64,000 nucleotides of DNA from Escherichia coli (GCF_044324785.1 NZ_CP172127.1), one strand, 5' to 3'; positions 3,694-61,512 are shown, numbered from the stretch's first letter. The notes: a model not told the origin generated them from the letters alone. Made by a program: numbers and translations.

Positions 3694-5010
3694 TCAGTTA
3701 GTTGCCGTTTGAGAACGGAAACGGGCAAAGATAAAGATGACTGCGAAGCAGAGTGCCGGGATCAGTTCGGCAGTGGGGATGTTGCCCGCTGCGTCACTGA
3801 CAAACCCCATGACCGGAGTGACAATACCGCCGCCAATAATGGTCATAACGATGAAGGACGAACCGTATTTGGTGTCCTGGCCGAGATTTTTAATGCCCAG
3901 CGAGAAGATTGTTGGGTACTGAATCGACATAAAGGCACTGCATAAAGTCAGGGCTATTAAGCCCACATGACCGCCAGCGAAGGCTGAGATCAGGCACAGT
4001 GCCATAGCGATTAATGCGTAGGCGGCCAGGACTTTGTGTGGTGCGAAGCGACTGATGAGCCAGGTACCGGTGAAACGACCAATAAAGAAGCACACCATGG
4101 TTCCGGTTAAATAGTTAGCGGCAAAGCCTGCAGTCATACCTGGAATTTCTTCTACAGCGTAGCGAATCAAATAGCTCCAGCAGGCCGTTTGTGCGCCGAC
4201 ATAGCAGAATTGCGCTAATACCGCCCAGCGCCAGTGACGAATACGCGCCAGACGAGAAAGCGATGCGGAGAACGATCCTTGTTTGGCGTCACTGTGATTA
4301 TCACTCTGCAATGCCGGGAATTTCGTCAGCATGATCAGCAGGGCGACCAGTAACACGATAGCCACGATGATCATATAAGGTGTCTGTACCGATAATACCA
4401 GGCTGTGTTTATACGCACTCAATTGCTCTGGAGACATTTTATCGAGAACGTCTTGCGATTGATGTGGCACGTTAGACAAAATAAGACTTTGCCCAAAGAC
4501 AACCGCGATAATTGCGCCAAATGAGTTAAATGTTTGCGCAAGATTTAAGCGGAAGTGACCACTGCTTTCCGGCCCTAATACCGTAACAAAAGGGTTTGCG
4601 GCAGTTTCCAGACAACCTAATCCAGCTGCAATAATAAATAGGCCAACTAAAAATAAGGTGTAGTTCATTATTTCTGCAGCGGGCCAGAATAATGCAGCGC
4701 CCAAGGCATATAAAAATAATCCGGTAATAATCCCTGCTTTATAACTGAGTTTTTTCATCAATATCCCAGCAGGGATTGGGATAATGAAATAACCAAAGTA
4801 AAAGGCCGATTGGATCAGGCCAGCCTGGAAATTTGTCAGCGTAAAAGCCTGCTGGAATTGAGGTAATAAAATGTCGTTAAGGTTATTGGCTACCGCCCAA
4901 AGAAAAAACAGTGAGCACAGCAGCGCGAATGGAATAATGTAACTTCTGCTTTGCCCTGCATCTTTATCTACCGCACGGTAACTCTGCGTTTGTATTGATG
5001 TGTTTCCCAT
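3694..5010 (-). CDS. fucP: L-fucose:H+ symporter (MFS)
   Basis: 438-aa multi-pass hydrophobic ORF; length and context match FucP. Confidence 0.93.
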   Translation of the reverse strand: MGNTSIQTQSYRAVDKDAGQSRSYIIPFALLCSLFFLWAVANNLNDILLPQFQQAFTLTNFQAGLIQSAFYFGYFIIPIPAGILMKKLSYKAGIITGLFLYALGAALFWPAAEIMNYTLFLVGLFIIAAGLGCLETAANPFVTVLGPESSGHFRLNLAQTFNSFGAIIAVVFGQSLILSNVPHQSQDVLDKMSPEQLSAYKHSLVLSVQTPYMIIVAIVLLVALLIMLTKFPALQSDNHSDAKQGSFSASLSRLARIRHWRWAVLAQFCYVGAQTACWSYLIRYAVEEIPGMTAGFAANYLTGTMVCFFIGRFTGTWLISRFAPHKVLAAYALIAMALCLISAFAGGHVGLIALTLCSAFMSIQYPTIFSLGIKNLGQDTKYGSSFIVMTIIGGGIVTPVMGFVSDAAGNIPTAELIPALCFAVIFIFARFRSQTATN

Positions 5011-5556
5011 AGCATCCTCTTAGGTTCAGAAGCTTAAGCACGTAATCGGTTATGTTTTCAAAAGTGCAAAACCAGCGAGTTCGGGCTTCATATCAGTGAA
5101 TATTTGCCTGTCAGAAATGAACTCATGGATTCATTTTCAAATAAAAAACGCTCTGTAATATGACGGCGGTCACACTTATTAGCTGGGAGGTGACTTTATG
5201 TGACTACCATCACTTTAATAATCGAAATTTCATGCCCGTTTCAGAAAATAAATCATAAAAAACACAAACCCGATGACCGTATTAATTGTTTGTGCCGAAA
5301 ACGGGCATTTCTGGCGAGGGGGAATGGAAAAATGACCGTTTTGATAAATATTTTTAAGAGCGGTCATTTTTAATAGGGTTATAAAAAGAGAACTTGCAGT
5401 TATTTACTGTGATTAGTTGAACCAGGTCACAAAATATAAGCTTGTGAATTTCTTTCTGGTTAATCAGGAAGAAGATGGTGGGTAATTAAACGGCTAATTC
5501 AATAGTGTGAAAGGAACAACATTATTGCCCTGTTTTGAATCAGAGAGAGGTAGCTA
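5011..5556. promoter_or_regulatory. Divergent fucPIKU / fucAO control region (expected FucR- and CRP-dependent promoters)
   Basis: 546-bp AT-rich non-coding gap between divergently oriented fucP and fucA; individual binding sites not mapped by me. Confidence 0.5.
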
Positions 5557-6204
5557 ATGGAACGAAATAAACTTGCTCGTCAGATTATTGACACTTGCCT
5601 GGAAATGACCCGCCTGGGACTGAACCAGGGGACAGCGGGTAACGTCAGTGTACGTTATCAGGATGGGATGCTGATTACGCCTACAGGTATTCCATATGAA
5701 AAACTGACGGAGTCGCATATTGTCTTTATTGATGGCAACGGTAAACATGAGGAAGGAAAGCTCCCCTCAAGCGAATGGCGTTTCCATATGGCGGCCTATC
5801 AAAGCAGACCGGATGCCAACGCGGTTGTTCACAATCATGCCGTTCATTGCACAGCAGTTTCCATTCTTAACCGACCGATCCCCGCTATTCACTACATGAT
5901 TGCGGCGGCTGGCGGTAATTCTATTCCTTGCGCGCCTTATGCGACCTTTGGAACACGCGAACTTTCTGAACATGTTGCGCTGGCTCTCAAAAATCGTAAG
6001 GCAACTTTGTTACAACATCATGGGCTTATCGCTTGTGAGGTGAATCTGGAAAAAGCGTTATGGCTGGCGCATGAAGTTGAAGTGCTGGCGCAACTTTACC
6101 TGACGACCCTGGCGATTACGGACCCGGTGCCAGTGCTGAGCGATGAAGAGATTGCCGTAGTGCTGGAGAAATTCAAAACCTACGGGTTACGGATTGAAGA
6201 GTAA
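5557..6204 (+). CDS. fucA: L-fuculose-1-phosphate aldolase
   Basis: 215-aa ORF MERNKLARQIIDTCLEMTRLGLNQGTAGNVS...; class II aldolase; correct length. Confidence 0.95.
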   Translation: MERNKLARQIIDTCLEMTRLGLNQGTAGNVSVRYQDGMLITPTGIPYEKLTESHIVFIDGNGKHEEGKLPSSEWRFHMAAYQSRPDANAVVHNHAVHCTAVSILNRPIPAIHYMIAAAGGNSIPCAPYATFGTRELSEHVALALKNRKATLLQHHGLIACEVNLEKALWLAHEVEVLAQLYLTTLAITDPVPVLSDEEIAVVLEKFKTYGLRIEE

Positions 6205-6228
6205 TTTCGTAAAGCAACAAGGAGAAGG

Positions 6229-7380
6229 ATGATGGCTAACAGAATGATTCTGAACGAAACGGCATGGTTTGGTCGGGGGGCTGTTGGAGCTTTAACCGAT
6301 GAGGTGAAACGCCGTGGTTATCAGAAGGCGCTGATCGTCACCGATAAAACGCTGGTGCAATGCGGCGTGGTGGCAAAAGTGACCGATAAGATGGATGCTG
6401 CAGGGCTGGCATGGGCGATTTACGACGGCGTAGTGCCCAACCCAACAATTACTGTCGTCAAAGAAGGGCTCGGTGTATTCCAGAATAGCGGCGCGGATTA
6501 CCTGATCGCTATTGGTGGTGGTTCTCCACAGGATACTTGTAAAGCGATTGGCATTATCAGCAACAACCCAGAGTTTGCCGATGTGCGTAGCCTGGAAGGG
6601 CTTTCCCCGACCAATAAACCCAGTGTACCGATTCTGGCAATCCCCACCACAGCAGGCACTGCGGCAGAAGTGACCATTAACTACGTGATTACTGACGAAG
6701 AGAAACGGCGCAAGTTTGTTTGCGTTGATCCGCATGATATCCCGCAGGTGGCGTTTATTGACGCTGACATGATGGATGGTATGCCTCCAGCGCTGAAAGC
6801 CGCGACGGGTGTCGATGCGCTCACTCATGCTATTGAGGGGTATATTACCCGTGGCGCGTGGGCGCTAACCGATGCGCTGCACATTAAAGCGATTGAAATC
6901 ATTGCTGGGGCGCTGCGAGGATCGGTTGCTGGTGATAAGGATGCCGGAGAAGAAATGGCGCTCGGGCAGTATGTTGCGGGTATGGGATTCTCGAATGTTG
7001 GGTTAGGGTTGGTGCATGGTATGGCGCATCCACTGGGCGCGTTTTACAACACGCCACACGGTGTTGCGAACGCCATCCTGTTACCGCATGTCATGCGCTA
7101 TAACGCTGACTTTACCGGTGAGAAGTACCGCGATATTGCGCGCGTTATGGGCGTGAAAGTGGAAGGTATGAGCCTGGAAGAGGCGCGTAATGCCGCTGTT
7201 GAAGCGGTGTTTGCTCTCAACCGTGATGTCGGTATTCCGCCACATTTACGTGATGTTGGTGTACGCAAGGAAGACATTCTGGCACTGGCGCAGGCGGCAC
7301 TGGATGATGTTTGTACCGGTGGCAACCCGCGTGAAGCAACGCTTGAGGATATTGTAGAGCTTTACCATACCGCCTGGTAA
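6229..7380 (+). CDS. fucO: L-1,2-propanediol oxidoreductase (lactaldehyde reductase), iron-containing ADH
   Basis: 383-aa ORF MMANRMILNETAWFGRGAVGAL...; start may be the second ATG (6232). Confidence 0.93.
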   Translation: MMANRMILNETAWFGRGAVGALTDEVKRRGYQKALIVTDKTLVQCGVVAKVTDKMDAAGLAWAIYDGVVPNPTITVVKEGLGVFQNSGADYLIAIGGGSPQDTCKAIGIISNNPEFADVRSLEGLSPTNKPSVPILAIPTTAGTAAEVTINYVITDEEKRRKFVCVDPHDIPQVAFIDADMMDGMPPALKAATGVDALTHAIEGYITRGAWALTDALHIKAIEIIAGALRGSVAGDKDAGEEMALGQYVAGMGFSNVGLGLVHGMAHPLGAFYNTPHGVANAILLPHVMRYNADFTGEKYRDIARVMGVKVEGMSLEEARNAAVEAVFALNRDVGIPPHLRDVGVRKEDILALAQAALDDVCTGGNPREATLEDIVELYHTAW

Positions 7381-7398
7381 ATGCGCTGATGTGATAAT

Positions 7399-7428
7399 GC
7401 CGGATGCGACGTTTGCGCCGTATCCGGC
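7399..7428. repeat. REP (repetitive extragenic palindrome) element
   Basis: gccggatgcgacgtttgcgccgtatccggc, the typical GCCGGATG...CATCCGGC-type palindrome, between convergent fucO and xni. Confidence 0.7.
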
Positions 7429-7434
7429 TCGCCG

Positions 7435-8301
<867 letters not shown>

Positions 8302-32023: not shown

Positions 32024-32896
32024 TTACCAGCGACCGGACGCGCCGCCACCGCCAGAAGAACCGCCCCCGCCGCTAAATCCGCCGCCACTTGAGCCGCCAC
32101 CGGAACCGCTGTTGTCTGAATGATAACTTCTACCAGATGCTTTTTTCTGAAGTACACATAAACAGGTAAAGACCATAATGGTGGTGAAAGTAAAAAAGAA
32201 GAAAAATACAGCAATGGAAAAAGTTTTATCGGAGAACAGGAATAAATCTAAAAGATAGATTGCTGAAATACAGACACTGCTTTTACATGCGCGACAAAAA
32301 TTACTGCCTTGATGAAAAAACCAGAAAGGGAAAAACATCACTGCAAATACCCAAAAAATAGCAAAGTAGTAATGATCGCTGGAAGACGCTGATTCACTTT
32401 CTGAAGGATTAGCCGAATATTGGTGTTGTGAAGTGAGTTGGTTATTCAAAGCGATTATAGCTAACTCTAATCCCTTAGCTAATTTTTGTTGTTTAAATGC
32501 GGGTATCATGTTGCTACGGATGATATCTCCAGCCAGAGCATCGGTTACCTTTTCTTCCAGCCCATAACCTACCTGGATGCGGACAGTACGATCCGACCAG
32601 GCAACAATGATCAGTATCCCATCATTGCGTTTGGCATCTCCTAAACGCCAATTGTTAAAAACCCTTGTAGCATATTGTTCAATTGTCTCGTCTTTGGTTG
32701 TGGGAATAATTAATACAGCAATTTGTACTTGGGTATTATTGAAAATAGATTCTAACTTCCGCGTCAGTTCTTTCTTTTCTTGTGAGTTTAAGCTACTCGT
32801 AAGATCCGTAACTTGTTGCTGTAATGATGGGACAATAGTTGGTTGGGCTGCAACAAAGGAACACACGAATGTGAACATTAGTATGAAATAGCGCAT
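32024..32896 (-). CDS. ygcG: TPM-domain membrane protein YgcG with Gly/Ser-rich C-terminal tail
   Basis: ORF 32024-32965; start placed at the ATG giving [20 protein letters not shown]... (290 aa, signal peptide-like); ends ...[28 protein letters not shown]. Confidence 0.8.
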
Positions 32897-33189
32897 TATA
32901 AATTTCTCATTAAATCTGGATAAATAAATTGACGGCGGCATCGGTAATTTGAGATTCGTTATCATTAAAAACGAACACAGAAAAAATAAATATAAATTTG
33001 GTGAATGTTTTTGACATGATTAAATCCATTTTCTTTATTTTCTTCTGACATAATACGTTACTCCCTTTAATTATTAACGATATGTTTCGCATTTTTCTTT
33101 AAACCTGCATGTAACAGAATGTTAATAAGACATGATTGTTGCGGCAGGATCTGCAATAATTAACAATTATCCACTTCACTGAGAATGCT

Positions 33190-33861
33190 ATGCAGTACCC
33201 GATTAACGAGATGTTCCAGACCCTGCAAGGTGAGGGTTACTTTACCGGCGTTCCCGCCATTTTTATTCGTTTACAGGGATGCCCGGTTGGCTGTGCCTGG
33301 TGCGACACCAAACACACCTGGGAAAAGCTTGAGGATCGGGAAGTCTCCCTTTTCAGCATTCTGGCGAAGACCAAAGAGAGTGATAAGTGGGGGGCGGCGA
33401 GCAGTGAAGACTTGCTGGCTGTCATTGGTCGCCAGGGATACACCGCGCGGCATGTGGTGATTACGGGTGGTGAGCCTTGCATTCATGATTTGCTGCCACT
33501 GACTGACCTGCTCGAAAAGAACGGTTTTAGCTGCCAGATCGAAACCAGTGGTACTCATGAGGTACGCTGCACACCGAATACCTGGGTTACCGTATCGCCA
33601 AAGCTGAACATGCGCGGCGGCTATGAAGTGTTGTCACAGGCACTGGAGCGAGCCAACGAAATCAAGCATCCAGTGGGACGCGTACGTGATATTGAAGCAC
33701 TGGATGAACTACTGGCAACACTGACCGATGATAAACCGCGAGTCATTGCGCTGCAGCCGATTAGCCAAAAGGATGATGCCACACGTTTGTGCATTGAAAC
33801 CTGCATTGCACGTAATTGGCGTTTGTCGATGCAAACACATAAATATTTAAATATTGCCTGA
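33190..33861 (+). CDS. queE: 7-carboxy-7-deazaguanine synthase (radical SAM)
   Basis: 223-aa ORF MQYPINEMFQTLQGEGYFTGVPAIFIRLQGCPVGCAWCDTKH... (CxxxCxxC-type radical SAM cluster); YgcF. Confidence 0.92.
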   Translation: MQYPINEMFQTLQGEGYFTGVPAIFIRLQGCPVGCAWCDTKHTWEKLEDREVSLFSILAKTKESDKWGAASSEDLLAVIGRQGYTARHVVITGGEPCIHDLLPLTDLLEKNGFSCQIETSGTHEVRCTPNTWVTVSPKLNMRGGYEVLSQALERANEIKHPVGRVRDIEALDELLATLTDDKPRVIALQPISQKDDATRLCIETCIARNWRLSMQTHKYLNIA

Positions 33862-34099
33862 TTAAACATTTATAAGCGTTATAAATGGGTGGGACCTGTA
33901 AAGACTTCTACTCATTTATATTCTTTGTCGCCTCTGAAAAACCTCCATTTTGCCCATCCTGGGCTAATCATTATCATTCTCTACAAATTCTATGGCGTTA
34001 ATTTTTCGTTGGAGTGAAAATTATTGCGGTGAAATTTGGTAGATTTTAGTTTGAATAGAGTTATTTTAAATATTTATCTTTTTAATCAATGGATTAAAT

Positions 34100-34199
34100 G
34101 CTCTTTAACATAATGGATGTGTTGTTTGTGTGATCCTGTAAAGTTGGTAGATTGTGACTGGCTTAAAAAATCATTAATTAATAATAGGTTATGTTTAGA
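34100..34199 (+). promoter_or_regulatory. CRISPR leader (array at 34200-34777)
   Basis: AT-rich sequence ...tggtagattgtgactggcttaaaaaatcattaattaataataggttatgtttagag directly abutting the first repeat; degenerate repeats are at the opposite end of the array. Confidence 0.75.
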
Positions 34200-34777
34200 G
34201 TGTTCCCCGCGCCAGCGGGGATAAACCGGGCGTTTCATGCTCATTGTTACCAACCCGCCAGTGTTCCCCGCGCCAGCGGGGATAAACCGCCGATGATCGG
34301 GCTCGGCATTTCGTCGAGGGGGTGTTCCCCGCGCCAGCGGGGATAAACCGGCTTGCAGCAGCTGCGCCAACGTCTGAATATGGTGTTCCCCGCGCCAGCG
34401 GGGATAAACCGATGGTGAGTGGTTGCATATGTGCCTGGCTATCGTGTTCCCCGCGCCAGCGGGGATAAACCGAGGCTATCTATCAGCCATTCTTCATCTA
34501 CTGAGTGTTCCCCGCGCCAGCGGGGATAAACCGGTCTGCTCGTGAGTCCGCGGCGCGAATTGCCGGTGTTCCCCGCGCCAGCGGGGATAAACCGCGAAGC
34601 TCCTTCCGTTGATTACCAAAATGTTGGTGTTCCCCGCGCCAGCGGGGATAAACCGACCGCCCGAACGGCAAAGGGGGCTTCTGGAAGGAGTTCCCCACGT
34701 CAGCGGGGATAAACCGGACACAGAGCGCCGCTATAGCGCCTATGCCAAGAGTTCCCCGCACCAGCGGGAATAAACCA
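34200..34777 (+). CRISPR. Type I-E CRISPR array, 10 repeats (29 bp, GTGTTCCCCGCGCCAGCGGGGATAAACCG), 9 spacers of 32 bp; last two repeats degenerate
   Basis: Repeats start at 34200, 34261, 34322, 34383, 34444, 34505, 34566, 34627, 34688 (gagttccccacgtcagc...), 34749 (gagttccccgcaccagcgggaataaacca); 61-bp periodicity read directly from the sequence. Confidence 0.97.
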
Positions 34778-35245
34778 CCATATAACCCGTTATCTCTTTC
34801 TCAAGTTTTTATATTAGCAGTACTCGTATTAAGCAACATATCCACGTAACACCTCATGTTCAAAATAGTTCTCCATGCCAGAGAAGTTCACAATTATCGA
34901 TACAAAAAATTAAATTTAATCAAAGTGTTATTTGTATGATTCTTAAATCGTTAAGAAATTTTAATCTATTGTTTTTTTAATATTGAATTAATGCCTGTTA
35001 ATTTTTTCTTTAGAATAACAGTGTATTTTTTAAGCTTGTTATTCATTGATTAAGTAATAAATCTGGAAGTTTGTCTTTGTTTTGAGGCTAATGAGTGGTT
35101 TTACATAACCGCCTCTATAGGCTGTTGATGAATAGTTCTTATGAATAAAGATATCCAGTTCATACTTTAAATGAAAATTGATAAAGTACGGTTTGCGTTG
35201 TCTTTTATTCTAAGGACATCGAGTGTAGTTAATATTCCTTGTAAC

Positions 35246-35370
35246 AACAGGGATAAACCGAACTAGTTAAAGTTTTTATTATGTTCCCTGCATCAGCGGG
35301 GATAAACCGGACTTGTTATCATTTTTTAAGTTGTCGAACTTATGTTCCCCGCGTCAGCGGGGATAACCAT
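35246..35370 (+). CRISPR. Degenerate CRISPR mini-array (one truncated and two mutated repeats, one 32-bp spacer)
   Basis: cagggataaaccg (35248-35260), tgttccctgcatcagcggggataaaccg (35282-35309), 32-bp spacer, atgttccccgcgtcagcggggataacca (35342-35369). Confidence 0.75.
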
Positions 35371-50475: not shown

Positions 50476-51210
50476 ATGTCCAAACTCGATCTAAACGCCC
50501 TGAACGAACTGCCGAAGGTAGATCGCATTCTGGCGCTTGCAGAAACTAACGCCGAACTGGAAAAACTGGATGCTGAAGGCCGCGTTGCCTGGGCGCTGGA
50601 TAATCTGCCCGGTGAATATGTACTTTCTTCCAGTTTCGGCATTCAGGCGGCGGTGAGCCTGCATCTGGTGAATCAGATTCACCCGGATATCCCGGTGATC
50701 CTGACCGATACGGGTTATCTGTTCCCGGAAACCTACCGCTTTATTGACGTGTTAACGGACAAACTCAAGCTCAACCTGAAAGTGTACCGAGCTACCGAAA
50801 GCGCCGCCTGGCAGGAAGCACGCTACGGCAAACTGTGGGAGCAGGGCGTTGAAGGCATTGAAAAGTACAATGACATCAACAAAGTCGAACCGATGAACCG
50901 GGCGCTGAAAGAACTGAATGCGCAAACGTGGTTTGCTGGCCTGCGCCGCGAACAATCCGGCAGTCGCGCCAATTTACCGGTGCTGGCAATTCAGCGTGGC
51001 GTATTTAAAGTGCTGCCGATTATCGACTGGGATAACCGAACGATATATCAGTATCTGCAAAAACATGGCCTGAAATATCATCCATTATGGGACGAAGGAT
51101 ATTTATCCGTCGGTGATACCCATACAACCCGTAAATGGGAACCCGGCATGGCGGAAGAAGAAACGCGTTTCTTTGGCTTAAAAAGGGAATGTGGGCTGCA
51201 CGAAGGGTAA
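50476..51210 (+). CDS. cysH: Phosphoadenosine phosphosulfate (PAPS) reductase
   Basis: ORF 50323-51210; start at the ATG giving [31 protein letters not shown]... (244 aa); upstream in-frame extension runs through the REP and is not credible. Confidence 0.94.
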
Positions 51211-51474
51211 ATATTGCCGGATAAATTAAACGCCTCTGTCAGAAATGATGGGGGCGTTTTTATTTTGCGAGCAGCATTCCGGCATTTAAAGGTGAACATC
51301 GCAGGGAGAATTAACAGGTATAGAATGGAGTTGGGTGCTTGAGGCTGTCTGGCGTTAAGCATTCGCGAGGTTCCAGATGGACAAAAGCCCCAGGCGATAT
51401 TTCTATCAACCTGAGGCCAGCGTTCGAACCTAAGCAATTCGAATGTTAGTCTCTTCTTTGCAGGGAGGCAAGAC

Positions 51475-51627
51475 ATGCTGACAAAATATGCCCTTGTGGC
51501 AATCATCGTACTGTGTTGTACAGTACTGGGATTCACGCTGATGGTAGGCGACTCGTTGTGTGAGTTGAGTATCAGAGAACGTGGTATGGAGTTTAAGGCA
51601 GTTCTCGCTTACGAATCGAAGAAGTAG
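51475..51627 (+). CDS. Hok/Gef-family type I toxin (small membrane peptide)
   Basis: 50-codon [53 protein letters not shown] preceded by SD gggagg; N-terminal TM helix, LCE motif and C-terminal AYES motif as in Hok/HokC(Gef) (MK...LCE...AYES); not in the supplied ORF track (below its length cut-off); corresponds to the position where K-12 carries a sok-like sRNA annotation (recalled). Confidence 0.75.
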
Positions 51628-51821
51628 CCACCACGCGGGGGTAAAACCCCGCGTACTGAATTGTGATGGTTTGGTCTCCTGCACCCTTTTTTAATTTATA
51701 TTGTTTATGTGAATATTATGCCTATGTTTATTATTCATATATATTACGGATGAAAATTATTTGATTATTCATAATGTAAATATTTTATTGAACGATATAT
51801 ATCACAGATAATTTTTAATAT

Positions 51822-54521
51822 ATGCGTAAATATCCTTTAAGTTTACTGAAGGATAAAAATATTGTGACTTTTTTTGATTTCTGGGGAAAAACCCGACGCG
51901 GCGAGAAAGACGGGGGCGACGACTATCACCTTCTTTGCTGGCATTCGCTGGATGTAGCCGCGATGGGCTATTTAATGGTTAAAAGCAATTGCTTCGGGCT
52001 GGCTGACTATTTTCGTCAACTAGGTTTCGCTGATACGGAGCAGGCAGCACAATTTTTCGCCTGGCTATTGTGCTGGCACGATACTGGAAAATTTGCCCGC
52101 TCTTTTCAGCAACTTTACCTGCACCCGCAACTCAAGGTTCCGGAAAGCTCTAGAAAAAATTACGAAAAAATCTCTCATTCAACGCTGGGTTACTGGTTGT
52201 GGCACCATTATTTAAGTGAATGCGAAGAATTGCTTCCTGCATCTTCACTCTCTCCGCGCAAGCTCAAACGGGTAATAGATATGTGGATGCCCATAACTAC
52301 CGGGCATCATGGTCGGCCTCCTGACCGTATGGATGAACTGGACAACTTTCTGCCTGAAGACAAAGCTGCCGCACGAGATTTTCTCCTTGCAATCAAGGCA
52401 CTGTTTCCGCTCATAGAGATCCCCACATTCTGGGATGATGACGAGGGCGTTGAACTCATAAAACAACTTTCCTGGTATATCTCTGCAACCGTCGTACTCG
52501 CAGACTGGACGGGATCGTCAGCGCGATTTTTTCCACGCGTCGCGCAGGCAATGGATATTGAAGATTACTGGCAGAAGGCTTTAGTTCAGGCTCAAAACGC
52601 ATTAACCGTCTTTCCTCCAAAAGCACAAACCGCGCCTTTCACCGGAATTAATACGCTGTTTCCTTTTATTGAGCACTCGACACCGTTACAGCAAAAGGTG
52701 CTGGATCTGGATATCAGCCAGCCTGGGCCACAGTTATTTATTCTGGAGGATGTGACTGGCGCAGGTAAAACAGAAGCGGCGCTTATCCTGGCCCACAGGT
52801 TGATGGCTGCGGGGAAAGCACAGGGTTTGTTTTTTGGCCTGCCAACAATGGCAACGGCCAATGCCATGTACGATCGGCTGGTCAAAACCTGGCTTGCTTT
52901 CTATTCGCCACAATCCCGCCCCAGCCTGGTGCTGGCACACAGTGCCCGCACATTAATGGATCGCTTTAATGAATCACTCTGGTCCGGTGATTTAGTCGGG
53001 TCAGAAGAACCGGATGAACAAACGTTCAGTCAGGGATGTGCGGCCTGGTTTGCCGACAGTAACAAGAAGGCGTTGCTGGCTGAAATTGGCGTCGGCACTT
53101 TGGATCAGGCGATGATGGCGGTGATGCCGTTCAAACATAATAATCTGCGGCTTCTGGGGCTGAGTAATAAAATCCTGCTGGCTGATGAGATCCACGCCTG
53201 TGACGCTTACATGTCATGCATTCTTGAAGGGCTGATCGAGCGGCAGGCGCGTGGCGGAAACAGCGTCATTTTGCTTTCTGCCACGTTATCTCAACAGCAG
53301 CGCGACAAACTCGTTGCTGCCTTTGCGCGTGGTACAGAGGGCCAGCAAGAAGCTCCGTTCCTGGAAAAGGATGATTACCCCTGGCTGACGCACGTTACGA
53401 AATCCGATGTGCATTCACACCGGGTAGCGACGCGCAAAGACGTTGAGCGTAGCGTGAGCGTGGGTTGGCTTCATAGCGAACAAGAATGTATTGCGCGTAT
53501 CGAATCGGCAGTAAGTCAGGGGAAATGCATCGCCTGGATCCGGAATTCTGTCGATGACGCTATTAAGGTTTATCGTCAGTTGCTTGCCCGCGGCGTCATT
53601 CCTGCTTCCAGCCTTTCTCTGTTTCATAGCCGCTTTGCTTTTAGCGATCGCCAGCGAATTGAAACGGAAACGCTGGCACGCTTCGGTAAAAGTTGTAGTT
53701 TACAGAGATCATCGCAAGTCATTGTTTGTACACAAGTAATTGAACAAAGTGTGGATATTGACCTGGACGAAATGATATCCGACCTGGCCCCTGTTGATTT
53801 GCTGATCCAACGGGCGGGGCGATTACAGCGGCATATCCGCGATATTAATGGTCAGTTAAAGCGTGACGGAAAAGACGAGCGTTCCCCTCCTGAATTGCTG
53901 ATTCTGGCCCCCGTCTGGGACGACGCTCCAGGTGACGAATGGTTCGGCAGTGCCATGCGTAACAGTGCATATGTCTATCCCGATCATGGACGAATCTGGC
54001 TGACGCAGCGTGTACTGCGTGAGCAAGGCGCTATTCAAATGCCACACGCAGCCCGCCTTCTTATTGAATCAGTCTACGGTGAGGACGTGGTAATGCCGGA
54101 AGGATTTGCCCGCAGCGAGCAGGAACAAGTGGGCAAATATTACTGCGATCGCGCAATGGCTAAAAAGTTTGTGCTGAACTTCAGGCCCGGCTATGCCGCC
54201 AATATCAACGATTACCTCCCGGAAAAACTGTCGACACGTCTGTCTGAGGAGTCTGTTTCCCTGTGGCTGTCTACCTGTATTGCCGGTGTGGTAAAGCCTT
54301 ATGCCAACGGTGCTCACGCATGGGAAATGAGCGTTGTCAGAGTGCGTCGAAGCTGGTGGAAAAAACATCGCGATGAGTTTTCTTTACTGGAAGGGGATGC
54401 GTTCAGACAGTGGTGCGTTGAACAGCGGCAAGATCCGGAGATGGCAAATGTGATTTTAGTTACCGATGACGAAAGTTGCGGGTATTCGGCTACGGAGGGA
54501 TTGATAGGTAAGGTTGATTGA
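51822..54521 (+). CDS. cas3: Cas3 helicase-nuclease (type I-E)
   Basis: 899-aa ORF with HD nuclease N-terminal region (HSLDVA...), DEAD-like helicase Walker A (EDVTGAGKTEAA) and DExH box (LLADEIHACD); an alternative GTG start at 51864 is possible. Confidence 0.93.
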   Translation: MRKYPLSLLKDKNIVTFFDFWGKTRRGEKDGGDDYHLLCWHSLDVAAMGYLMVKSNCFGLADYFRQLGFADTEQAAQFFAWLLCWHDTGKFARSFQQLYLHPQLKVPESSRKNYEKISHSTLGYWLWHHYLSECEELLPASSLSPRKLKRVIDMWMPITTGHHGRPPDRMDELDNFLPEDKAAARDFLLAIKALFPLIEIPTFWDDDEGVELIKQLSWYISATVVLADWTGSSARFFPRVAQAMDIEDYWQKALVQAQNALTVFPPKAQTAPFTGINTLFPFIEHSTPLQQKVLDLDISQPGPQLFILEDVTGAGKTEAALILAHRLMAAGKAQGLFFGLPTMATANAMYDRLVKTWLAFYSPQSRPSLVLAHSARTLMDRFNESLWSGDLVGSEEPDEQTFSQGCAAWFADSNKKALLAEIGVGTLDQAMMAVMPFKHNNLRLLGLSNKILLADEIHACDAYMSCILEGLIERQARGGNSVILLSATLSQQQRDKLVAAFARGTEGQQEAPFLEKDDYPWLTHVTKSDVHSHRVATRKDVERSVSVGWLHSEQECIARIESAVSQGKCIAWIRNSVDDAIKVYRQLLARGVIPASSLSLFHSRFAFSDRQRIETETLARFGKSCSLQRSSQVIVCTQVIEQSVDIDLDEMISDLAPVDLLIQRAGRLQRHIRDINGQLKRDGKDERSPPELLILAPVWDDAPGDEWFGSAMRNSAYVYPDHGRIWLTQRVLREQGAIQMPHAARLLIESVYGEDVVMPEGFARSEQEQVGKYYCDRAMAKKFVLNFRPGYAANINDYLPEKLSTRLSEESVSLWLSTCIAGVVKPYANGAHAWEMSVVRVRRSWWKKHRDEFSLLEGDAFRQWCVEQRQDPEMANVILVTDDESCGYSATEGLIGKVD

Positions 54522-54547
54522 GATGCCCTGGCGTCGGATGACGCCAG

Positions 54548-54576
54548 GGCTTATCCCCGCTGACGCGGGGAACAGG
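54548..54576 (-). repeat. Solitary CRISPR-repeat-like sequence in inverted orientation downstream of cas3
   Basis: Minus-strand reading cctgttccccgcgtcagcggggataagcc matches the array repeat at 25 of 27 aligned positions; immediately preceded by a second perfect hairpin gccctggcgtc-ggat-gacgccagggc (54525-54550). Confidence 0.8.
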
Positions 54577-54950
54577 AGCATAAAATGATATACGTGTATC
54601 ACTAACTTGGTTAATCCCTTAGACAGGGAACTGAAGACGTTTATATCAAAAATAAGGGTTATTCGAAATAAAGAAAATCTCTAAGAGTTATTGATATACG
54701 TAACAATGTCCGGAAGCAGAGTTGAAAAACCTTTTGATAAAGAATACTTTGGTTTTTATTAAGTGATAGAGCCTGAGCGAAAAGGATTATAGAAAATTAT
54801 CTTTATATATTCGTGTGATTTATTGATTATTTAATAATAATCTAATTTTCAATATATTCATTTAATATGATGTAATCTCTCTTTTCGATTGATTCTTGAA
54901 TATGGTGATGGACAACCTACCATGGATGGTCTTATTTGCGAGGAAAGCGT
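54577..54950 (+). promoter_or_regulatory. cas3-cse1 intergenic region, expected Cascade operon promoter (Pcas; H-NS/LeuO-controlled in K-12)
   Basis: About 370 bp of strongly AT-rich non-coding DNA upstream of cse1 with a good RBS (gagga) before the ATG at 54951; promoter elements not mapped. Confidence 0.5.
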
Positions 54951-56513: not shown

Positions 56514-58116
<1,603 letters not shown>

Positions 58117-59505: not shown

Positions 59506-60715
<1,210 letters not shown>

Positions 60716-60811
60716 GTTATCCGTTCTTTAAAAATAAGGAAATGTTTTAATTTAGTTGGTAGATTGTTGATGCGGAATAAATTTGTTTAAAAACAGTTAT
60801 GTATGCTTAGT
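60716..60811 (+). promoter_or_regulatory. CRISPR leader (array at 60812-61512)
   Basis: AT-rich 96 bp between the cas2 stop and the first repeat (…ggaaatgttttaatttagttggtagattgttgatgcggaataaatttgtttaaaaacagttatgtatgcttagt). Confidence 0.75.
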
Positions 60812-61512
60812 GTGTTCCCCGCGCCAGCGGGGATAAACCGTTTCACCGTCGTTCCGTCCGCGCGCTTAGCCTGTGTTCCCCGCGCCAGCGGGGATAAACC
60901 GATTGCGCGGACCGGGCCAGCGCGTCGATTTCTGTGTTCCCCGCGCCAGCGGGGATAAACCGGTGACGACGATCCCAACGCTGCAAAAGGTTAAGTGTTC
61001 CCCGCGCCAGCGGGGATAAACCGCCGTGCTCAATTCAACACCCGACACTGCGCGAGTGTTCCCCGCGCCAGCGGGGATAAACCGTTGTAATTTTGTTCAG
61101 TCTGGCCCATAGCGCGCGTGTTCCCCGCGCCAGCGGGGATAAACCGTTTTGTGAGTATCTTATTTGTCTGGCTCGGTGGTGTTCCCCGCGCCAGCGGGGA
61201 TAAACCGATCTGTTTGCAGATCAACAGGCCCGTAAGGACGTGTTCCCCGCGCCAGCGGGGATAAACCGATAACGCCCGCGCGATCTGGATTATCAGTTAC
61301 GTGTTCCCCGCGCCAGCGGGGATAAACCGCCCGACGGCAGTCGGAGATTAACTATATATGTGTGTTCCCCGCGCCAGCGGGGATAAACCGGGTAAAAACA
61401 CGGTCTGAACCGACATTCATGTGTGTTCCCCGCGTCAGCGGGGATAAACCGGACGCACTGGATGCGATGATGGATATCACTTAGAATTCCCCGCCCCTGC
61501 GGTAGAACTCGC
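60812..61512 (+). CRISPR. Type I-E CRISPR array, 12 repeats (11 canonical 29-bp GTGTTCCCCGCGCCAGCGGGGATAAACCG plus 1 degenerate terminal), 11 spacers of 32-33 bp
   Basis: Repeats start at 60812, 60873, 60934, 60995, 61056, 61118, 61179, 61240, 61301, 61362, 61423 (gcgTcagc variant) and degenerate 61484 (gaattccccgcccctgcggtagaactcgc). Confidence 0.97.

Follow-up and report, generated by a model that had tools for sequence, protein, structure and literature searches.

An AT-rich island upstream of cas3 in the Escherichia coli cas-E1 module, a plausible promoter, leader and H-NS target

The DNA considered here, hereafter the window (the whole stretch analysed, 64 kb long), is a segment of the E. 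coli chromosome in which cysJIH is followed by hok/sok, cas3, the cse1-cse2-cas7-cas5-cas6e-cas1-cas2 genes, a CRISPR and iap. The nearest complete genome is that of strain N3, with 100% identity over positions 51200-52000 and 98.45% over 20.8 kb. The protein encoded by cas3 displays the domains of a type I-E Cas3 (Pfam Cas3_HD, 7.4e-33; Cas3-like_C_2, 3.7e-34), together with a DEAD match (1.2e-05) whose 25.5 bits fall slightly below the 26-bit cutoff, and the order of the genes that follow is that of a type I-E system. Two variants of this module have been described: cas-E1 is the ancestral, majority variant, while K-12 and a minority of strains carry the replaced module cas-E2 (PMC3903273). 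All strains but the cas-E2 ones possess hok/sok, and E1 and E2 each have their own intergenic element, IG4 and IG5, respectively (PMC3903273). The reverse complement of primer cas3E1-R (Almendros 2014, PMC3903273) is found at 51903-51922, and the window is therefore assigned to the cas-E1 variant (cas-EO, O157-type). The variant-specific 5' sequence of cas3, the intact hok/sok beside it and an identity of 88.4% to O157 over 51660-51960 are likewise those of cas-E1. The features described below are collected in Table 1.

Table 1. Features between hok and cse1 (window coordinates)
Feature	Position	Strand	Basis or remarks
hok-family toxin ORF, 50 aa	51475..51627	+	Pfam HOK_GEF E = 5.7e-10; RefSeq 'Hok/Gef family protein'
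hok mRNA 3' untranslated end	51628..51694	+	48.6% G+C; RNA fold; megablast boundary
AT-rich island proper	51695..51863	+	169 bp, 18.3% G+C, TpA frequency 0.185
Variable 5' half of island	51695..51783	+	20-23/89 differences, window type vs O26/O157 type
Candidate -10 hexamer CATAAT	51770..51775	+	alignment; inference; no strong -35 element
Conserved 3' half of island	51784..51863	+	4/80 differences between haplotypes
Candidate -10 hexamer GATAAT	51807..51812	+	PWM score 9.0, 99.98th percentile; alignment
ATG, RefSeq-annotated cas3 start	51822..51824	+	probably not the real start
Predicted leader hairpin	51831..51855	+	TATCCTTTA (51831-51839) pairs with TGAAGGATA (51847-51855), MFE -8.2 kcal/mol
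cas3 (cas-E1 variant), 885 aa	51864..54521	+	start re-assigned to GTG 51864
Solitary CRISPR repeat GCTTATCCCCGCTGACGCGGGGAAC	54549..54573	+	2 mismatches to repeat
cas3-cse1 intergenic AT-rich region, presumed Cascade operon promoter	54577..54950	+	29.7% G+C

The left flank of the cas genes carries every hallmark of a hok/sok type I toxin-antitoxin system: an ORF of the Hok/Gef family, a Sok-family RNA (Rfam RF01794, 51333-51490, 111.7 bits) and a long-range pairing within the mRNA. From its proximal to its distal side, the 3' end of hok comprises a G+C-rich hairpin (51633-51654), a pairing segment (~51675-51688) and a run of six T (51688-51693). Folding of 51330-51700 predicts a long-range helix between the 5' end of the hok mRNA (~51333-51346) and this pairing segment (z = -3.0), and such pairing of the 5' and 3' ends is typical of hok mRNAs. 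In genomes that harbor another cas set or none, megablast similarity stops at window position 51693/51694. The island therefore starts at 51695 and belongs to the cas module and not to the conserved flank: it travels with the cas-E1 genes and not with cysH-hok. A scan for intrinsic terminators between hok and cas3 found none, the T6 run after the long-range hok helix standing alone, so that read-through from hok into cas3 is possible. A promoter-like match aimed at hok is present on the minus strand at 51782-51811 (TTATCT, an 18-nt spacer and TAAAAT; 99.99th percentile); if active, it would yield a transcript antisense to the hok 3' end. To note, an IS421 is inserted in the hok 3' region of strain MDR_56, directly upstream of the tract.

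The interval 51628-51821 is the exact gap between the hok stop codon and the cas3 ATG annotated in RefSeq. The earlier note had presented it as an extremely AT-rich tract forming the cas3 upstream region, and the sequence that it quoted is located at 51689-51821. Both the position of the tract upstream of cas3 and its AT-richness are confirmed: the G+C content is 0.289 over 51628-51821 and 0.172 over 51700-51821, as compared to 0.506 for the whole window. The 122-bp segment starting at 51700 ranks at the 0.06th percentile of all 122-bp segments in the 64 kb, its value being the lowest, tied with that of one island beside the CRISPR-II array (~34.89 kb), and the lowest 194-bp segment starts at 51687 (0.180). 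The description needs amendment on three points. The AT-rich part of the interval stands, but its first 67 bp are the end of the hok mRNA; 51700-51821 is indeed dominated by A/T, but "almost pure A/T" is too strong a wording for a stretch with 17% G+C and a longest unbroken A/T run of 16 nt; and position 51821 is not the right end of the island, as low G+C continues to about 51863-51883. The island thus covers ~170-190 bp between flanks of 48-51% G+C, and its TpA frequency represents an about four-fold excess over that of the whole window (0.046). It is most likely the non-coding promoter and 5' UTR of cas3, at the left end of the cas-E1 module.

The cas3-cse1 gap, which had been put forward as a similarly AT-rich region, proves to be one, with a minimum 122-bp G+C of 0.180. 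All the very AT-rich islands of the window adjoin CRISPR-Cas elements, namely the CRISPR-II flanks, the cas3 upstream region, the cas3-cse1 gap and the CRISPR-I leader, and extreme AT-richness in the 64 kb marks CRISPR-Cas regulatory DNA generally. The islands other than those around cas3 are located at 32867-35285, flanking the CRISPR-II arrays (repeats at 34202-34775 and 35283-35368), and at 60666-60823, the CRISPR-I leader. A simple argument from foreign composition fails, since the cas-E1 genes themselves have 50-55% G+C and are not AT-rich. Several other candidate features were discarded. Repeats shared by the two islands, whether inverted (19 nt, 84%) or direct (14 nt), were considered as inversion or recombination sites and are at chance level (10/100 Markov resamples), and the small ORFs of the tract are chance ORFs of 33-37 amino acids running in from the flanks. 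An Rfam search in E-value mode detected no known RNA family in the tract, returning solely sok and a sub-threshold ctRNA match at the cysH terminator.

The right boundary of the island depends on where cas3 starts. The ATG at 51822 is the start used by PGAP, and its frame matches that of cas3 in 2624 complete E. coli genomes, this window among them; were it the true start, part of the tract would be coding and the regulatory region would end at 51821. Several pieces of evidence make this unlikely. In 132 other complete E. coli genomes, one T is inserted between this ATG and the GTG at 51864, so that a reading frame opened at the ATG is not that of cas3 and ends ahead of the GTG, cas3 being otherwise full length (e.g., 2701 bp in strain 042); the same configuration is found in Escherichia sp. 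MOD1-EC7003 and in the locus of a Pseudocitrobacter contig, and E. coli MDR_56 also carries the extra T. Homology of cas3 orthologues begins at residue 15-17 of the annotated protein, as judged by tblastn with E. albertii, Intestinirhabdus alba, Citrobacter youngae, Salmonella diarizonae, Klebsiella indica and Phytobacter. These orthologues have a GTG or a TTG at the position of window 51864, just upstream of which in-frame stops occur in four of them (E. albertii, Intestinirhabdus, C. youngae and Phytobacter); in S. diarizonae the GTG is present and the 60 nt examined upstream contain no in-frame stop. In K. grimontii, a stop occupies the position of the GTG and an ATG is found two codons downstream. 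The ATG at 51822 is not conserved in the E. albertii alignment. Inspection of the sequence before this ATG reveals no Shine-Dalgarno-like element, whereas a candidate, GAAGGA (51848-51853), lies 10 nt 5' of the GTG. The 42 nt separating the two codons have ~19% G+C, unlike the 51% of cas3. Finally, when translation is started at the GTG, the match to Pfam Cas3_HD opens at residue 7 of the product, and PGAP itself places the start at the GTG in strain GF4-3, as a partial Cas3''.

Together, these data make it very probable that cas3 starts at GTG 51864, and 51822-51863, annotated as the first 14 codons of the gene, is most likely 5' UTR. The annotation is affected beyond this window. The cas3 of enteroaggregative strain EAEC 042 is labelled "frameshifted" by PGAP because the extra T puts the ATG out of frame, and that of MDR_56 is flagged likewise; some of the "frameshifted" cas3 calls are artefacts of a misplaced start codon. 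If the GTG is right, the additional T of ~130 RefSeq genomes falls in the 5' UTR, and those that were checked annotate cas3 as frameshifted or partial.

Alignment of six E. coli haplotypes divides the island in two. The 5' half diverges by 22-26% and includes a 3-bp indel, and 32 bp of it are deleted in Escherichia sp. MOD1-EC7003; the 3' half is conserved, as is the hok 3' end (0-3/58 differences among haplotypes). The G+C content of the island nevertheless stays at 17.5-18.3% in all six haplotypes, and the changes between the window and O157 over 51695-51863 are balanced (8 S-to-W, 7 W-to-S, 8 W-to-W). Since G+C is steady despite divergence and the W/S changes are balanced, the 5' half looks constrained in composition rather than in sequence, and the 3' half in sequence; the latter is likely the core promoter and leader. 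The layout is identical in E. albertii, with the hok 3' end, an AT-rich tract and then the GTG, and the arrangement is therefore older than E. coli. More broadly, AT-rich DNA (24-35% G+C over 200 bp) precedes the gene at 8 of 10 orthologous loci, those of Escherichia, Citrobacter, Salmonella diarizonae, Klebsiella grimontii, Phytobacter and Pseudocitrobacter. The two exceptions are Intestinirhabdus and K. indica, whose cas3 comes straight after the cysH terminator.

Promoter prediction within the island is diffuse. A simple consensus scan of the tract found no sigma-70 promoter, and a PWM scan, with matrices that are our own approximation from published frequencies, gave 16 matches, spread over both strands, that exceeded the 99.94th percentile, none of them standing out. 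Many promoter-like matches on both strands are the usual picture for very AT-rich DNA, and the idea of a single clear sigma-70 promoter was dropped. Two candidate -10-like hexamers retain the critical A2 and T6 across E. coli, E. coli SCPM-O-B-8794 and E. albertii. The first reads CATAAT in the window, AATAAT in SCPM-O-B-8794 and TATTAT in E. albertii, and would place a transcription start near 51782. The second, preceded at 17 bp by TTTATT (51784-51789), reads GATAAT, CATAGT and GAATAT in E. coli, SCPM-O-B-8794 and E. albertii, respectively, and predicts a start near 51819; it is part of a TCACAGA(T)AAT block kept as far as E. albertii.

Downstream, the hairpin predicted in the leader buries the GAAGGA Shine-Dalgarno candidate. 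The extra T mentioned above falls in its loop, and one U.G pair becomes C-G in strain SCPM. The leaders of C. youngae, K. indica and E. albertii, which are not homologous, are also predicted to form hairpins hiding the Shine-Dalgarno sequence. As 3-21% of shuffled sequences fold equally well, each case is weak on its own, and a sequestering leader hairpin is to be taken as a lead from folding predictions.

The AT-rich DNA might conversely act positively and drive cas3, whether it is an UP-element, a flexible upstream segment or a landing site for CRP, LeuO or some other activator. UP-elements are AT-rich. A CRP-like site is found at 51791-51806, in the conserved half: it reads AACGA-TATATA-TCACA in the window, its left half is GCTGA in the O157 haplotype, and the haplotypes together conform to (A/G)(A/C)(C/T)GA-TATATA-TCACA. 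CRP also activates the non-homologous cas3 promoter of K-12 (PMC7019758). Yet only one half-site, TCACA, is perfect, the left one matching at 2-3 of 5 positions, and the site was set aside as a weak lead; no strong core promoter is evident, and the variable 5' half, the expected place of an UP-element for the CATAAT promoter, is poorly conserved. An activating role appears highly unlikely.

The earlier note had taken the tract as typical of H-NS-silenced promoters. Its composition is indeed of the kind that H-NS prefers, being TpA-rich with 18.3% G+C against 50.6% for the window, and H-NS represses the cas and CRISPR promoters of K-12 (PMC8616872, PMC4782391). The nucleation motifs (TCGATAAATT, i.e. 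tCGATAAATT, and TCGATATATT) have one match each at ≤2 mismatches, ACGATATATA at 51792 and TCAATAAAAT at 51782 on the minus strand, and these 10-mers are not enriched in the tract beyond its composition (P = 0.56 against shuffles of the tract). The island is also far shorter than the extended AT-rich tracts (over ~1 kb) along which H-NS filaments spread. According to K-12 ChIP-seq data, silencing goes with H-NS regions longer than 1 kb, shorter ones being "gentler modulators"; no more than 40% of the target genes of regions below 1 kb change expression in a delta-hns strain (PMC3064808). A literature search returned no published H-NS binding, reporter or transcript data for cas-E1 strains, O157 and 042 included. 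In favor of H-NS also stand the steady composition across haplotypes, the dense promoter-like matches, as in H-NS-type AT-rich DNA, and the fact that every very AT-rich island of the window adjoins a CRISPR-Cas element. The island is on balance a probable site of H-NS binding; that the cas3 locus is silent under standard conditions, as the earlier note suggested, has about even chances.

The reading that we favor, with moderate confidence, is that the island forms the promoter and 5' leader of the cas-E1 cas3 gene and is a plausible H-NS target that would keep cas3 expression low. The conserved 3' half would hold a weak sigma-70 promoter and a leader in which a small hairpin can mask the Shine-Dalgarno sequence. 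An island with 18% G+C and rich in TpA should be a good substrate for H-NS (and StpA), which would occlude or trap RNA polymerase and hold cas3 transcription low in standard growth. The island may act jointly with the second AT-rich island, 2.7 kb downstream, before cse1.

A rival explanation is a weak constitutive promoter and leader on which H-NS has little or no effect, as for cas3 in exponential-phase K-12. AT-richness would then be a by-product of the foreign origin of the module, of mutation bias in unconstrained intergenic DNA, and of promoters and 5' UTRs being generally AT-rich. The shortness of the island and the lack of enrichment in nucleation motifs would be expected in that case, as would a 5' half that evolves fast and is partly deletable (the 32 bp gone in Escherichia sp. 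MOD1), and the two orthologues devoid of AT-richness (K. indica and Intestinirhabdus) point the same way. Besides, cas3 is barely hns-dependent in K-12 (PMC7019758; mid-log, PMC4782391). On the other hand, 18% G+C is far under typical E. coli intergenic DNA, and the G+C content stays within 1 percentage point across haplotypes differing at a quarter of their positions, with balanced W/S changes. The same AT-rich pattern is moreover repeated at every CRISPR-Cas regulatory region of the window. A promoter indifferent to H-NS is thus a possible but somewhat doubtful alternative to the H-NS-targeted promoter and leader.

A more elaborate scheme can be drawn, in which cas3 is gated apart from Cascade at two levels, an H-NS loop and the hairpin hiding the Shine-Dalgarno sequence. 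The 18%-G+C islands 51695-51863 and ~54700-54950 bracket a cas3 gene of normal composition, and H-NS could bridge them into a 3-kb loop; the hairpin would make the synthesis of Cas3 dependent on temperature or on a trans-acting factor. As a corollary, the RefSeq ATG would be wrong for ~2750 genomes, and roughly 5% of them, EAEC 042 included, would have their cas3 falsely called a frameshifted pseudogene. We consider this scheme very unlikely as a whole.

The silent state of the locus had also been proposed to relax selection against a nonsense allele of cas7. The window cas7 carries a TAA at codon 83 (57307-57309, E83*), where strain N3 has GAA. This allele is found in none of the 2594 complete genomes that carry this cas7: the best match of the cas7 segment among them is 140/141 bases, and the 37-mer centred on the TAA has no exact 28-nt seed in any genome. 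The TAA is either a recent change private to this strain or a sequencing error; being confined to one strain, it is uninformative on long-term selection, and gives no support to a relaxation of selection. Decay of cas-E1 loci is seen independently elsewhere: cas3 has an internal stop in O26 strain RM8426 and is truncated in BA22372, and the IS421 insertion of MDR_56 is a further case.

Of 5426 complete E. coli genomes, 2768 (about half) carry the tract. It is probably the equivalent of IG4, the intergenic element of cas-E1 arrangement A: IG4 is specific to E1, invariably accompanies cas-E1 and is missing where a strain has no cas-E genes, and the tract behaves likewise (PMC3903273). The paper describing IG4 does not discuss its composition or regulation.

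A third, rare type I-E cas set occurs in 27 of the 5426 genomes, e.g., strain TL012 (positions 4492-7798 of its extracted locus, L003). Its cas3, which encodes 898 amino acids, is inverted, abuts hok by its 3' end and is divergent from casA; the junction of this cas set corresponds to window position 51694. With 44% identity to the window Cas3, it is a different gene, which rules out an inversion of the window cas3. The divergent gap of TL012 contains degenerate CRISPR repeats (L003:7327-7410). In the window, the solitary CRISPR repeat lies 28 nt after the cas3 stop, inverted with respect to both arrays and preceded by a hairpin (54520-54555), and forms the left edge of the second AT-rich region. 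The same element is present in the cas3-casA gap of TL012, and was not found in K-12 or in the E1-like loci of other genera. This solitary repeat may represent a recombination scar or serve as a terminator of cas3.

What is known of CRISPR-Cas regulation in E. coli comes nearly entirely from K-12, a strain with the minority cas-E2 module, while about half of the complete E. coli genomes, including O157:H7, O26, O111 and EAEC 042, carry cas-E1, whose cas3 control region is unrelated in sequence to that of K-12 and far more AT-rich. Should H-NS silencing be true, cas3 would be shut off more tightly in most natural E. coli than in K-12, which bears on why the arrays of cas-E1 strains appear inactive. 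The tract is ordinary in kind and uncharacterised, and is not homologous to anything characterised in K-12. Useful by-products of the analysis are the correction of the cas3 start codon and the recognition that K-12 regulation is not simply transferable to most E. coli; Almendros et al. 2014 had cautioned that K-12 findings may not hold in full for E1 (PMC3903273).

The comparison with K-12 illustrates this point. The cas3 promoter of K-12 serves the same gene function at the same chromosomal position, downstream of cysH and a hok/sok remnant. The tract is not a homologue of this region (cas-E2 / IG5): the blastn match to K-12 ends at window position 51477, inside hok, with no similarity downstream of the hok 5' remnant. 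Upstream of K-12 cas3, this sok/hok 5' remnant is followed by ~95 bp of E2-specific DNA, the hok ORF having been lost. The last 120 bp before K-12 cas3 have 38% G+C, with a lowest 122-bp segment at 30%, as compared to 169 bp at 18% here, and the reported CRP site of K-12 cas3, ATGAGCAG-N7-AAATAGCCCGCTG, is absent. Because the two cas3 upstream regions are non-homologous, the silence "as in K-12" invoked by the earlier note is an analogy and not a homology; the modules differ (cas-E1 here, cas-E2 in K-12) and their Cas3 proteins are 28% identical. The analogy is itself uneven. The K-12 cse1 promoter is strongly silenced by H-NS, rising ~20-fold in a delta-hns strain, while a reporter of the cas3 promoter, which CRP activates, is "slightly increased" (PMC7019758). 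Without hns, the cas3 transcript is unchanged in mid-log and about 8-fold up in stationary phase (PMC4782391). K-12 is a weak precedent for the silencing of cas3 specifically.

A further parallel is that of S. Typhi, whose cas3 transcription unit is silenced by H-NS according to the account of Medina-Aparicio 2017 given in PMC8039139. It belongs to an enterobacterial type I-E system in which cas3 forms a transcription unit of its own; this cas3 is divergent from the cas operon, whereas that of the window is co-directional. Within E. coli, the rare third variant alone displays a divergent cas3, and the TL012 arrangement resembles the one described for S. Typhi.

In terms of composition, the cas3-casA gap of K-12 is a better parallel to the tract than the K-12 cas3 upstream region. 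This gap (IGLB) harbors Pcas, the cse1/casA promoter, which is silenced by H-NS and relieved by LeuO (Pul 2010 and Westra 2010, as relayed in PMC4782391 and PMC8616872). Its minimum 122-bp G+C is 0.197, as compared to 0.172 for the tract. At the DNA level, it is homologous neither to the tract nor to the cas3-cse1 region of the window. Pcas belongs to a cas-E2 module and controls cse1, not cas3, and its H-NS and LeuO footprints are known. Both are AT-rich islands placed before a type I-E cas unit at the cysH-iap locus, with promoter-like hexamers dense on both strands.
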